This document shows positions 9,290 to 59,600 of a DNA stretch of 64,000 nucleotides, in pieces; the stretch's first letter is position 1; every line of letters starts with the position of its first letter. The notes beneath the pieces are model-generated. The model was not told the DNA's origin and ran no database searches. It worked only from the letters and a program-made list of their open reading frames with translations. The DNA comes from Escherichia coli (GTDB lineage Bacteria; Pseudomonadota; Gammaproteobacteria; Enterobacterales; Enterobacteriaceae), in the NCBI RefSeq assembly GCF_003334815.1, contig NZ_QOWO01000016.1. One strand, written 5' to 3'. A program made the position numbers and the translations under genes.

Positions 9290-9376
9290 TGGTGCGAGGG
9301 GGGGGACTTGAACCCCCACGTCCGTAAGGACACTAACACCTGAAGCTAGCGCGTCTACCAATTCCGCCACCTTCGC
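9290..9376 (-). tRNA. tRNA-Leu (anticodon CAG)
   Basis: Reverse complement reads GCGAAGGTGGCGGAATTGGTAGACGCGCTAGCTTCAGGTGTTAGTGTCCTTACGGACGTGGGGGTTCAAGTCCCCCCCCTCGCACCA: a long-variable-arm cloverleaf with CAG anticodon and encoded CCA. Confidence 0.9.
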
Positions 9377-9480: not shown

Positions 9481-9676
<196 letters not shown>

Positions 9677-18851: not shown

Positions 18852-19214
18852 TTAACGACCAGCTGCGCGGAGTTTTCCGTCAGGTTCACCGGCAAGAGTC
18901 AGTAATTGTCCCTGGTCTTCCTGCAGAATAGTCAGGCGACCACCGCGATTGACATACATCGGCGTTTCGGTGGTGTCTTCTTCGGAAATTTTCCCGCGGT
19001 TAGTTGGGCGAACATATGAGAGTTTGTGTTTGATTTTCACACGGTTCTCATCAAACGGTTCGATTTCCAGATTGAGTGAGACCTTCCCTTTGGTTTTCGT
19101 GTTCATCACACCGGAAGCGACTTCACTTAGAACTGCGCCGATTTTGGTTTCAAATACGCCGCCGTCCAGCTCCCCGATAAATGCCTGCACATCAGTACTG
19201 CGTTCACTAGCCAT
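18852..19214 (-). CDS. Phage hypothetical protein
   Basis: About 120 aa from MASERSTD; the longer annotated frame extends through a structured GC-rich region that is probably non-coding. Confidence 0.45.
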   Translation of the reverse strand: MASERSTDVQAFIGELDGGVFETKIGAVLSEVASGVMNTKTKGKVSLNLEIEPFDENRVKIKHKLSYVRPTNRGKISEEDTTETPMYVNRGGRLTILQEDQGQLLTLAGEPDGKLRAAGR

Positions 19215-19650
19215 TTTGCTGCTCCTCATCATATCGACCCTGCAAGGTCGGTTAGTTTCTCCACAAAACAGAGAAGAACACCTGCGGTGGCAGCCGCCCG
19301 GATGGATTGGGTTATGAGCCCGTCGTCCGATGATGCTCTTCTCTGTTTTGTAAAAAGAGCGGTACCAGCCGGAAGCAAGTGTACAAACTGGTACCGCCAA
19401 GACTACACACAGCATAAAGTTGTGGTGCCGGGTGCCTCCCGGTGCCTGGCGAAGGTTGCACACCAGGCTGGTGGGTATCCACAGAAGGTCGACTGTCAGC
19501 CTCAACCTTATCCCGCGTGCGCTGAGCCGCATTCACCACAACGCTAAGGATTCTCTCTGGTTGAAAATACTTAGCTGTTATGTGCCTGTCTTTTCACCAC
19601 TTCAGGCTCGGTGGTATCCTTTTAAGCCCGTATACATAAAAGGAAAATCA
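19215..19650. ncRNA. Candidate structured non-coding region (putative phage sRNA or regulatory leader)
   Basis: No convincing ORF; several perfect stems, e.g. ACAAAACAGAGAAGA...TCTTCTCTGTTTTGT and GCGGTACCAG...CTGGTACCGC. Confidence 0.25.
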
Positions 19651-19651
19651 A

Positions 19652-19897
19652 ATGACTTTTGATGAAAAAGAACTTGATAATGCAATTAATAAAATCATCG
19701 TAACGTCGCTCTTTTCCTGTCTCAGCGACACTCAGCAAAAACAGTTCTACGAATCGGCTTTCAACATGATCGAGCGTTGTTGTTTCTGCGATGCCGACGA
19801 GTTACCTGAAAAAATCAGGAAACAGTTGGCTGATGCTCTTCGAGTGCGACTTTCTGACCAATTTTCTGAAATGTACTCTCCGAATTTGGACAAATAG
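19652..19897 (+). CDS. Phage hypothetical protein
   Basis: 81 aa preceded by AAAGGAAAA; 3' end overlaps a convergent minus-strand ORF. Confidence 0.35.
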   Translation: MTFDEKELDNAINKIIVTSLFSCLSDTQQKQFYESAFNMIERCCFCDADELPEKIRKQLADALRVRLSDQFSEMYSPNLDK

Positions 19898-20087
19898 AAA
19901 AAGGCCATTTCCATTCAGGGTCTGATGGAAAGACTTCAGCCTGTTCTAAAGCACGGCGTAAAGAGAATACAACTCCAGCCATAATCTGATGTTTCCCATT
20001 GGCCCAGCTATCGCCGCTCTGATCTACATGGGCGGCTATGTCGTATGACCAAACGACTTCACAGTTATTGTTTAAAATCTGGACTTT
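19815..20087 (-). CDS. Phage hypothetical protein
   Basis: About 91 aa from MKVQIL with AGGTG 7 nt upstream; convergent overlap with the 19652..19897 ORF, so one of the two may be spurious. Confidence 0.3.
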   Translation of the reverse strand, partial: KVQILNNNCEVVWSYDIAAHVDQSGDSWANGKHQIMAGVVFSLRRALEQAEVFPSDPEWKWPFSICPNSESTFQKIGQKVALEEHQPTVS

Positions 20088-20296
20088 CATTTCATACACC
20101 TGCTTTAACATGAGTGCCTAGTGGCACAACATGACTCAACGAATCATCCTGGACTTCATATGCCCCAGGCGGCTACTTCGTGGGCGTCCTGCCTGTTCGT
20201 TATCTTTGACATAAAATCTAACTTAACTTAGTTTTTAAGGCAAGAGAAAACACCAAACTTTTCTTAGCTTGGTGCCTTAGTTAGAGAAGGGAGGTA

Positions 20297-20923
20297 CTAG
20301 AGTTCGTATTGAACTCCTTTGACTACACCAATGATCAGGCAATTACCATTGATCGGGATGTTGGGATACCGGGGATTCAATGGTACTAAAAACTTTTGAT
20401 GACCATCGATGACTAATTTTTTTACTGTAGCTTCGTTCGTTCCATCAAGTCGAGCAATGACTATTTTTCCATGACGGGGTTCTGCATCAGGATCTACAAT
20501 CACTGTTGCACCTTCTGGTATTGTTGGGAGGCCATTAGGGTTAGTCATGGAGTCGCCTTTAACTTCTAATGCAAATGAGTTATCACCAATCTTTAAAGAT
20601 GTATCTACCCACTTGTCCACTTCACTAAACACTTCTGCTGCCCTGCACTCAGTAAACTGCCCAGCCTGAACCCACGAAATTACAGGAACTCTGCGCATGT
20701 TTGTGACGAGTTTGCCTTCAAACTCAGCACCATAAAGAATGTAATCTATTGACGTATTAAAGAACTTCGCTAATTTCGAAAGTGCTTCCCCGCCAGGGAC
20801 ATTGATGTCTTTTTCCCAGTACCCCACAGCAACGTCACTTACCCCACAAAATTTACCCAATTCTTTCTGGGACGTTCTGGTAACCCTTCTCAGAGCTTTT
20901 ATACGCTGACCAACCGTTTCCAT
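20297..20923 (-). CDS. CI-like prophage repressor (HTH plus S24 LexA-type peptidase)
   Basis: 208 aa; N-terminal XRE HTH; C-terminal S24 motifs (GDSM ... VKKL); divergent from a cro-like gene. Confidence 0.8.
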   Translation of the reverse strand: METVGQRIKALRRVTRTSQKELGKFCGVSDVAVGYWEKDINVPGGEALSKLAKFFNTSIDYILYGAEFEGKLVTNMRRVPVISWVQAGQFTECRAAEVFSEVDKWVDTSLKIGDNSFALEVKGDSMTNPNGLPTIPEGATVIVDPDAEPRHGKIVIARLDGTNEATVKKLVIDGHQKFLVPLNPRYPNIPINGNCLIIGVVKGVQYEL

Positions 20924-20945
20924 AGGAGCACCATTTCTTGAATTG

Positions 20946-21008
20946 CTAAGTAATCTTAGTTTTTATTGACCTAAGATAGATTGATAATTAACATCTAATA
21001 AAACTTAG
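20946..21008. promoter_or_regulatory. Immunity-region operators between cI and cro
   Basis: Inverted-repeat sites CTAAGtaatCTTAG (20946..20959) and CTAATaaaaCTTAG (20995..21008), plus an additional CTAAG half-site. Confidence 0.45.
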
Positions 21009-21021
21009 TTTTGGAGGGTGT

Positions 21022-59199: not shown

Positions 59200-59600
59200 C
59201 CCTTCGTAGGCAGCATCCGGCAGTCGGCGCATAATGCCTGATGCGACGCTTGTCGCGTCTTATCATGCCTACAGGTTTGTGCCGAACCGTAGGCCGGATA
59301 AGGCGTTCACGCCGCATCCGGCAGTTGGCGCACAATGCCTGATGCGACGCTTGACGCGTCTTATCATGCCTACAAGTCTGTGCCGAACCGTAGGCCGGAT
59401 AAGGCGTTCAGGCCGCATCCGGCAGTTGGCGCACAATGCCTGATGCGACGCTGACGCGTCTTATCATGCCTACAAGTCTGTGCCGAACCGTAGGCCGGAT
59501 AAGGCGTTCACGCCGCATCCGGCAGTCGGCGCATAATGCCTGATGCGACGCTTGTCGCGTCTTATCATGCCTACAAGTCTGTGCCGAACCGTAGGCCGTA
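59200..59600. repeat. REP/BIME cluster (four tandem palindromic units)
   Basis: Four repeats of GCCTGATGCGACGCTTGxCGCGTCTTATCATGCCTACA...GCCGGATAAGGCGTTCACGCCGCATCCGGCAG. Confidence 0.75.

Follow-up and report, generated by a model that had tools for sequence, protein, structure and literature searches.

A non-coding, STnc100/PasD-like RNA leader in the early-left operon of an SfV-like prophage of Escherichia coli

The window analysed here, a stretch of 64,000 nucleotides of Escherichia coli DNA, contains an SfV-like lambdoid prophage with a gap of 436 bp (positions 19215-19650) upstream of yfdP. This gap is a non-coding, multi-module RNA leader, carried by the minus strand between the PL-proximal part of the early-left operon and yfdP; its core, as judged from sequence homology and covariation, is shown to belong, as a divergent and unannotated member, to STnc100/PasD, a family of small RNAs (sRNAs) carried by prophages. 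Read from 5' to 3' on the minus strand, the modules are the core domain, a U-rich linker, an intrinsic terminator, a hairpin of 89 nt (I1 in the following), and a small hairpin with the ribosome-binding site of yfdP (Table 1).

Strand and non-coding character of the gap

The fold of 446 nt of the minus strand reaches -180 kcal/mol (z = -7.2 versus shuffled sequences), and that of the plus strand is weaker (z = -4.0); the structure signal of the gap lies entirely on the minus strand, that is, in the sense of the early-left (PL) operon. The G+C content rises moderately, being 0.52-0.55 over positions 19100-19600 versus 0.37-0.47 in the flanks. A first-pass annotation of this DNA had reported two perfect inverted repeats, and both are found where it placed them: the 15-bp repeat (ACAAAACAGAGAAGA / TCTTCTCTGTTTTGT, 19263-19277 / 19337-19351, spacing 59 nt) extends to arms of 25 nt with 84% complementarity, and the 10-bp repeat (GCGGTACCAG / CTGGTACCGC, 19359-19368 / 19388-19397, spacing 19 nt) is part of the terminator stem; a third perfect pair of 9 bp, absent from that annotation, joins GTTGTGGTG (19419-19427) to CACCACAAC (19534-19542). 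The proposal of a structured, RNA-level element within the early-left operon is supported by folding, covariation and gene order, and the suggestion of a phage sRNA or processed leader turns out to be the right kind of answer, given a core of STnc100/PasD type followed by a terminator, with the qualification that the Rfam match is below threshold. What had escaped the first reading is the strand, the long-range closing helix, the pseudoknot, and the fact that the two repeats belong to separate modules, namely the terminator and the long hairpin.

Comparison with related phages indicates that the gap is non-coding on both strands, in agreement with the earlier view that it holds no convincing open reading frame (ORF). 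In a codon-phase test of the window versus ST64B, sal3 (Salmonella phage 118970_sal3) and L057 (a relative of 60% identity), with yfdP as positive comparison, the substitutions in 19215-19532 are spread flatly over the three phases (21/23/23), whereas yfdP displays the expected third-position excess (27/33/79); since the test is strand-blind, all six frames are covered by it. It is hardly credible that the gap is protein-coding or decayed coding sequence, be it the 226-aa frame that runs into yfdP or the plus-strand ORFs annotated in some phage records: indeed, besides the lack of periodicity in any phase, the indels among relatives (1, 1, 1, 9 and 29 nt) are for the most part not multiples of three, and the upstream extension by which the 226-aa frame gains 106 codons, and which close relatives do keep open, is open in near-identical copies only, running for 5 codons in Citrobacter phage phiNP and 19 in L057 and having no ATG in ST64B or sal3. 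Two kinds of annotation speak for a coding sequence. PHROG families exist for overlapping ORFs (e.g., phrog_3651 for the plus-strand ORF 19287-19547), but these derive from the annotations with which near-identical sequences were deposited, so that they are not independent evidence and are judged to be annotation artefacts; moreover, a RefSeq E. coli genome (NRZ14408 record) carries a frameshifted 'hypothetical protein' in the gap. The same record annotates YfdP with 120 aa and, together with the Shine-Dalgarno sequence found before the ATG at 19214 in every relative compared, bears out the earlier assignment of the true start of this gene to MASERSTD (19214).

The core domain and its homology to STnc100/PasD

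A covariance-model search had been proposed as a check, and a permissive scan of Rfam gives a full-length match to STnc100 (RF02076) on the minus strand (19350-19572, 44.9 bits, E = 4e-8), which does not reach the gathering score of 47 bits; the relatives score 39.5 (SfV), 37.5 (sal3) and 35.1 bits (ST64B). The window and the Rfam consensus have in common an invariant 22-mer, CACCGGGAGGCACCCGGCACCA, which occurs exactly in at least 120 viral contigs of IMG/VR (28 clusters under 85% identity), and canonical copies carrying it score 53-172 bits as STnc100. The features by which an STnc100 core is recognized are all present in the window, that is, the closing helix, the first hairpin, the last hairpin CCGGG-AGGCA-CCCGG and the invariant 3' strand, followed, after a variable linker, by an intrinsic terminator (19350-19398). 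Together with its relatives, the window copy belongs to a sub-family, here named B, with the signature GUGGUGAAUGCGGCU(M)AGCGCACGCGG, which is absent from a gathering-threshold Rfam scan; our own model of the domain, R1, gives 78.9 bits on the window copy, which was in its training set.

The fold of the core was assessed in an alignment (A1) of 33 diverse domains, and the compensatory changes for which an alignment across related prophages had been proposed as a check were found in the core helices, in the pseudoknot and in I1. Pairing in the closing helix P1 and the hairpins H1 and H5 amounts to 95.5%, 11 pairs have both partners substituted, and none of 500 shuffles does as well; a shift of the partners by one to three columns cuts the pairing to 37-50%. 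In H1, the GCGGC/GC(A)CGC of sub-family B corresponds to CCCCC/GG(A)GGG of the canonical copies, which amounts to three fully compensated pairs with loop and bulged A kept; the Rfam alignment draws this hairpin in another register, with non-canonical pairs, and this misregister is probably the reason for the low STnc100 score. Both the three helices and a pseudoknot are supported by compensatory changes. The 5' strand of the latter (5-10 nt, AAGGUUG in the window) lies about 4 nt after H1, and its partner is the loop of the hairpin preceding the last one, GCCUGGUG[UGCAACCUU]CGCCAGGC. Complementarity is kept by more than 20 distinct strand pairs among the 33 sequences (AAGGCUG/CAGCCUU, CCAGUC/GACUGG, CAGUUAA/UUAACUG, GGCAAA/UUUGCC and UGCGGC/GCCGCA are examples), the mean being 6.39 bp versus 4.48 +/- 0.19 after permutation of the loops between sequences, and none of 2000 such permutations reached the observed mean. 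The pseudoknot is absent from the Rfam consensus structure of STnc100 and unmentioned in the accessible part of a 2026 preprint in which RNAalifold was used (bioRxiv 10.64898/2026.05.13.724894); within the compass of these sources, the pseudoknot of the STnc100-type domain is previously undescribed, and with the corrected register of H1 it provides a testable structure for the whole STnc100/PasD family.

Members of this family are expressed in other settings: eleven STnc100 copies are transcribed in EDL933, one of them confirmed by Northern blot (PMC5331693); the Hfq-bound sRNA EcOnc27 overlaps in part an STnc100 copy downstream of stx2 (PMC12711010); and PasD, an abundant Hfq-dependent sRNA, has been judged STnc100-related (PMC8550237; the accessible part of bioRxiv 10.64898/2026.05.13.724894). 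Typical copies are described as stand-alone genes that lie in the late region, in the neighbourhood of Q, stx, esterase and lysis genes (PMC12370729 and the same part of the preprint); by reading of the alignment, the domain of the canonical clusters is preceded, at about 8 nt, by an extended -10-type promoter and followed by a linker that varies and a terminator. Canonical copies were also seen in tandem arrays beside phage tRNA genes (five copies in 3 kb in L108, 4984-7937, plus strand; also in L012, L011 and L005), and in L011 a canonical copy is separated by about 700 nt from one of sub-family B on the same strand, a weaker third match to R1 also being present.

Table 1. Coordinates of the modules of the leader and of the features around it.
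Feature	Position	Strand	Remarks
cI-type repressor gene	20297-20923	minus	
Inferred PL promoter, TTGCCT-17-TAGATT	20212-20245	minus	operator (CTAAC TTAA CTTAG type) in spacer
62-nt structured RNA at 5' end of PL transcript	20139-20200	minus	invariant 25-nt core AGGCAGGACGCCCACGAAGUAGCCG, two covarying helices
Small ORF between repressor and gap	19815-20111	minus	orf33 homologue
Weak A/U-rich terminator-like hairpin annotated by SfV	19632-19664	minus	
Upstream module	19573-19650	minus	hairpin CCAC-CGAGCCUGAA-GUGG, then UGAAAAGACAGGCACAUAAC
STnc100-like core, sub-family B, 124 nt	19419-19542	minus	Rfam, exact 22-mer, covariation
Closing helix P1, 9 bp	19534-19542 with 19419-19427	minus	
Hairpin H1	19515-19530	minus	GCGGC / GC(A)CGC, bulged A
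Pseudoknot P2	19503-19509 with 19452-19458	minus	AAGGUUG with CAACCUU
Hairpin P3	19461-19468 with 19444-19451	minus	
Hairpin H5	19428-19442	minus	CCGGG-AGGCA-CCCGG
U-rich single-stranded linker UUUAUGCUGUGUGUAGUCUU	19399-19418	minus	candidate seed or Hfq / RNase E region
Intrinsic terminator	19350-19398	minus	13-bp stem 19358-19398, -20.7 kcal/mol; tail CUUUUUAC 19350-19357
Long hairpin I1, 89 nt	19263-19351	minus	stem of ~20 bp including the 15-bp repeat; compensatory changes
Small hairpin	19233-19252	minus	then conserved Shine-Dalgarno GAGGAG 19222-19227, before yfdP start
yfdP, 120 aa, first gene 3' of leader	18852-19214	minus	start codon 19212-19214

Flanking modules, prophage setting and distribution

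The linker UUUAUGCUGUGUGUAGUCUU is kept in ST64B, sal3 and phiNP, even when the upstream domain differs, as in phiNP, where another helix-closed structure is found. The terminator of ST64B has an unrelated stem (GUCGGCGUC / GACGCCGAC) and the same U tail, so that the function of the terminator appears to be conserved. Over 19357-19411 there is a match to DicF (RF00039), of 18.9 bits (E = 0.37) versus a gathering score of 48, and the 5' arm of the terminator with its flank shares UUGGCGGUA(C/U)CAGUUU with DicF. A relationship of the tail to boxA of nut sites was considered, since CGCUCUUUUUACAA is near to boxA, and rejected; ST64B has CGACCUUUUUACAC at this place, and the string is thus a by-product of stem and U tract.

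In 74 sequence variants, the stem of I1 displays compensatory changes (GAGAAG/CUUCUC to GACAAG/CUUGUC; AAGAGC/GUUCUU to AAGGGC/GCCCUU), with G.U pairs possible in the minus sense only. Its apex GGGCUCAUAACCC (19309-19321) is identical over 13 nt to the anticodon stem-loop of the E. coli initiator tRNA, covering three G-C pairs and the CUCAUAA loop; the matched sequence was verified as tRNA-Met, with four copies per genome. The apex served as search pattern, so that its conservation in the 74 variants is by construction and only the relatives found by BLAST are independent; in ST64B the loop reads CUCAUUA instead of CUCAUAA. In the IMG/VR locus L262, GGGCUCAUAACCC was seen with a compensated outer stem, about 30 nt after the apparent 3' end of a tRNA gene. 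The small hairpin before the ribosome-binding site is present with different sequences in three lineages (UGGCGG..CCGCCA in ST64B, UGGCAG..CUGCCA in L057). At the other end of the leader, the stretch 19575-19620 recurs with 95% identity in Klebsiella phages and is found as well in sal3 (L004), in which an insertion of about 190 nt upstream of the domain, also seen in phiNP (L129), carries a tRNA T-arm-like sequence, GGTTCGATTCCAG; this insertion may be the remnant of an attachment site.

The genes yfdP, yfdQ and yfdR follow the gap in this order, all on the minus strand; the gene order of SfV is that of the window, and the sole feature annotated in its gap is a 'putative terminator'. With the variant below the Rfam threshold, and the SfV and NRZ14408 records carrying only a terminator or a hypothetical coding sequence here in place of an RNA, an annotation gap results. 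From three operator-like repeats (20212-20240, 20940-20968 and 20989-21017) and a promoter read in the sequence, we infer that PL lies at about 20212-20245 on the minus strand. Between the repressor gene and the gap, two convergent ORFs overlap by 83 nt, one of 81 aa with a good ribosome-binding site (19652-19897, plus strand) and the orf33 homologue of 91-98 aa (19815-20111, minus strand); each has one full-length PHROG match (phrog_3311 and phrog_3195), only the minus-strand ORF is annotated by RefSeq, and a minus-strand hairpin with a T-run lies within the overlap. In the early-right operon, SfV (L001), ST64B (L003) and sal3 carry isrK and the C4 antisense RNA, a P1-type immunity module; at Rfam threshold neither was found in the prophage of the window, whose early-right region is thus of another type despite the common early-left leader. 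Near the ends of the window lie a tRNA-Leu(CAG) gene (9290-9376, minus strand) and four naRNA4/REP-type repeats, one at 9516-9598 and three at 59292-59571 (all plus strand), which may represent the host DNA flanking the prophage on both sides.

Close to PL, a second structured RNA of 62 nt is found. Its helices are paired at 96.7%, and both partners have changed in 9 of 10 pairs; variants of one helix are CGAA/UUCG, CCACC/GGUGG and UCAUC/GAUGA, and of the other CCUGG/CCAGG, CCGAC/GUCGG and CCACC/GGUGG. The element occurs in non-coding DNA of temperate phages from at least seven enterobacterial genera (Escherichia, Salmonella, Klebsiella, Yersinia, Pantoea, Pectobacterium and Citrobacter), and it has no match in Rfam; a search for a second copy downstream of PR returned only a weak match at about 22828, judged unconvincing. 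Among 113 loci with the element and at least 2 kb of downstream sequence, the STnc100-type motif occurs in 50, the I1 apex motif in 63 and both in 43, within about 0.3-2 kb, counts that are biased because part of the sample was fetched via those motifs. The element is a candidate for a device of the early-left 5' leader, acting in antitermination or stability; were it an antiterminator, the passage of polymerase through the terminator at 19350-19398 would be explained. Homology to put was considered and set aside, the likeness being loose (ACGAAC at the 5' end, AGGAUGA) and the architecture another one, and only a positional analogy is retained.

The sequence of the gap is matched in 2785 of 5426 complete E. 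coli genomes (over at least 80% of its length in 1814) and is also present in SfV, SfII, SfIV and ST64B; mEp460, cdtI and Stx2c phages have only the yfdP-proximal 186 bp. Sub-family B domains are located between repressor and yfdP in SfV, ST64B, sal3, L057 and several IMG/VR prophages, and between repressor and kil in Cronobacter phage phiES15 and Klebsiella phage ST405-OXA48phi1.2; mEp460 carries a more divergent copy (28.5 bits). In the Qin prophage, the domain occupies the gap between dicF and dicB, with 20 nt separating it from dicF and about 27 nt from dicB; this copy (K-12 MG1655 1,649,454-1,649,581; L324 1955-2082, plus strand) scores 73.9 bits with R1, is unannotated, and is unmentioned in the accessible parts of the literature cited on that region. 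The stretch from dicF to the domain is present in 4633 of the 5426 genomes, and since K-12 itself carries the domain, experiments would be easy to set up.

Possible function and comparison with known systems

As to function, we lean, on balance of the comparative analysis, towards a DicF-style leader, which would give rise both to an Hfq-type sRNA of about 190 nt and to a read-through yfdPQR mRNA. Transcripts from PL would end in part at the terminator (19350-19398) and have their 5' end trimmed, in the way of DicF in Qin, by RNase E or RNase III; the product would comprise the 124-nt domain, about 20 nt of linker and about 45 nt of terminator, and would act in trans via the linker or a loop. 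Polymerases reading through would continue into I1, probably an RNase III or regulatory site, and then into yfdP, yfdQ and yfdR. Several observations weigh against this leader of DicF style. The window copy is below the Rfam gathering score, and the status of expressed, Hfq-associated RNA is known for other copies only (PMC5331693, PMC12711010, PMC8550237). A promoter of its own just upstream of the closing helix, as for a stand-alone gene, was found neither in the window by a consensus scan nor as conservation upstream of P1 in the alignment of the sub-family; in its absence, the window copy would be made only when PL is derepressed. As to targets of the linker, the best duplex on both window strands (-25 kcal/mol) compares with -23 to -30 for shuffled linkers, and none is beyond chance. 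Finally, in L057 and Qin no terminator follows the domain, and yfdP or dicB starts 25-60 nt after it; such a place in the 5' untranslated region fits a cis-acting role better than an sRNA.

Such a cis-acting leader is a possible, if clearly less probable, explanation; the pseudoknotted domain would bind a protein, a small ligand, the ribosome or RNA polymerase and control the next early-left gene (yfdP, kil or dicB), be it by changing how often polymerase passes the terminator, how stable the processed mRNA is or how well it is translated, with no need of a trans-acting sRNA. Besides the arrangement in L057 and Qin, it accounts for a variant without its own promoter that always lies upstream of the first early-left genes, and an invariant 22-mer in a helix-closed pseudoknot is an architecture seen in aptamers and protein-binding sites; nevertheless, the domain has no known ligand or partner, the linker that joins it to the terminator is variable both in length and in sequence, with no conserved anti-terminator pairing seen in the alignment, and the canonical members are stand-alone, terminated, Hfq-associated sRNAs (PMC5331693, PMC8550237, PMC12711010). 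Rather improbable is processive antitermination in the manner of HK022 put or Bacillus EAR, in which the nascent domain would modify RNA polymerase and so carry it past the terminator and beyond. The operon does contain terminators, no N-like protein was seen beside PL, and orf33, the first ORF after PL, has no arginine-rich motif, by reading and with no systematic search; the intra-operonic position of the element is itself EAR-like. Yet neither the 22-mer nor R1 finds a match in HK022, and its putL and putR, located here, are unlike the domain in sequence and architecture, the two-stem put fold being missing from the domain, so that homology of the main domain to put was discarded; literature searches on put homologues and ST64B sRNAs returned nothing relevant to this locus. 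Moreover, the canonical copies have their own promoters, lie upstream of lysis genes and accumulate as terminated RNAs in uninduced cells (PMC8550237, PMC5331693), where a strong antiterminator would be expected to be lethal, which makes this role unlikely for the domain, and the separate element after PL (20200-20139) is the better candidate for it. Hardly credible, too, is a site acting at the DNA level, be it for recombination, as an origin or as a palindrome bound by protein. The first-pass annotation had listed a recombination or binding site among its suggestions, and perfect inverted repeats are indeed present, but G.U pairs are tolerated in the minus sense only, covariation is that of RNA helices, pseudoknot included, folding is stronger for the minus than for the plus strand, and the arms are 19-106 nt apart, an arrangement that is not operator-like.

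A bolder version of cis control, which we regard as doubtful, would see in the STnc100 core an aptamer-like pseudoknotted module that binds a conserved host or phage factor and, in its early-left form, gates the host-takeover genes dicB, kil and yfdP in cis. It would act alongside two other unclassified RNA devices, the put-like candidate element at 20200-20139 and I1, whose apex could sense, or act as a decoy for, factors recognizing the initiator-tRNA anticodon loop, such as the 30S P site with IF3, MetRS, or VapC-type nucleases cutting initiator tRNA; if true, such gating would extend to E. coli prophages in their thousands, Qin of K-12 among them. The layout of a 5' element at PL, domain, terminator and long hairpin suggests a possible mode of early-left control in lambdoid phages apparently devoid of an N gene.

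The put RNA of HK022 is distinguished by the suppression of downstream terminators without protein factors. The leader described here takes up the stretch of the early-left region that corresponds to HK022 put and lambda nut, in a phage with no N-like gene seen beside PL, and terminators lie downstream; it differs from these in that the boxA-like string at the terminator tail is unconserved (ST64B has CGACCUUUUU) and in that the domain lies about 660 nt from the inferred PL start and does not adjoin it. The 62-nt element corresponds in position to HK022 putL and differs from it in architecture. I1 recalls the RNase III hairpins of the lambda N leader and of sib, being a near-perfect duplex of about 20 bp in the early-left transcript ahead of a gene start; however, there is no sequence relation, and the lambda sites are devoid of its initiator-tRNA-like apex.

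The leader also resembles DicF and the dicBF operon of Qin: in both cases a non-coding stretch lies in the untranslated part of a repressor-controlled, repressor-proximal operon of early-left type, ahead of a host-directed gene, the 3' end of the sRNA is set, or would be set, by an intrinsic terminator, UUGGCGGUA(C/U)CAGUUU is shared, and Qin itself carries the same variant of the domain 20 nt after dicF. In contrast, the match to DicF is far from its gathering score (18.9 versus 48 bits), the 5' (seed) part is unlike dicF, and the order of modules is reversed, being dicF then domain in Qin and domain then DicF-like hairpin in the window. From canonical STnc100, the window copy differs by its sub-threshold score (44.9 versus 47 bits), by a first hairpin fully compensated to another sequence, by the absence of its own extended -10 promoter and by its location inside the early-left operon, between repressor and yfdP; with the STnc100/PasD family it has in common the closing helix, the first and last hairpins, CACCGGGAGGCACCCGGCACCA, the topology of the pseudoknot, the 3' linker and terminator, and the residence in prophages.

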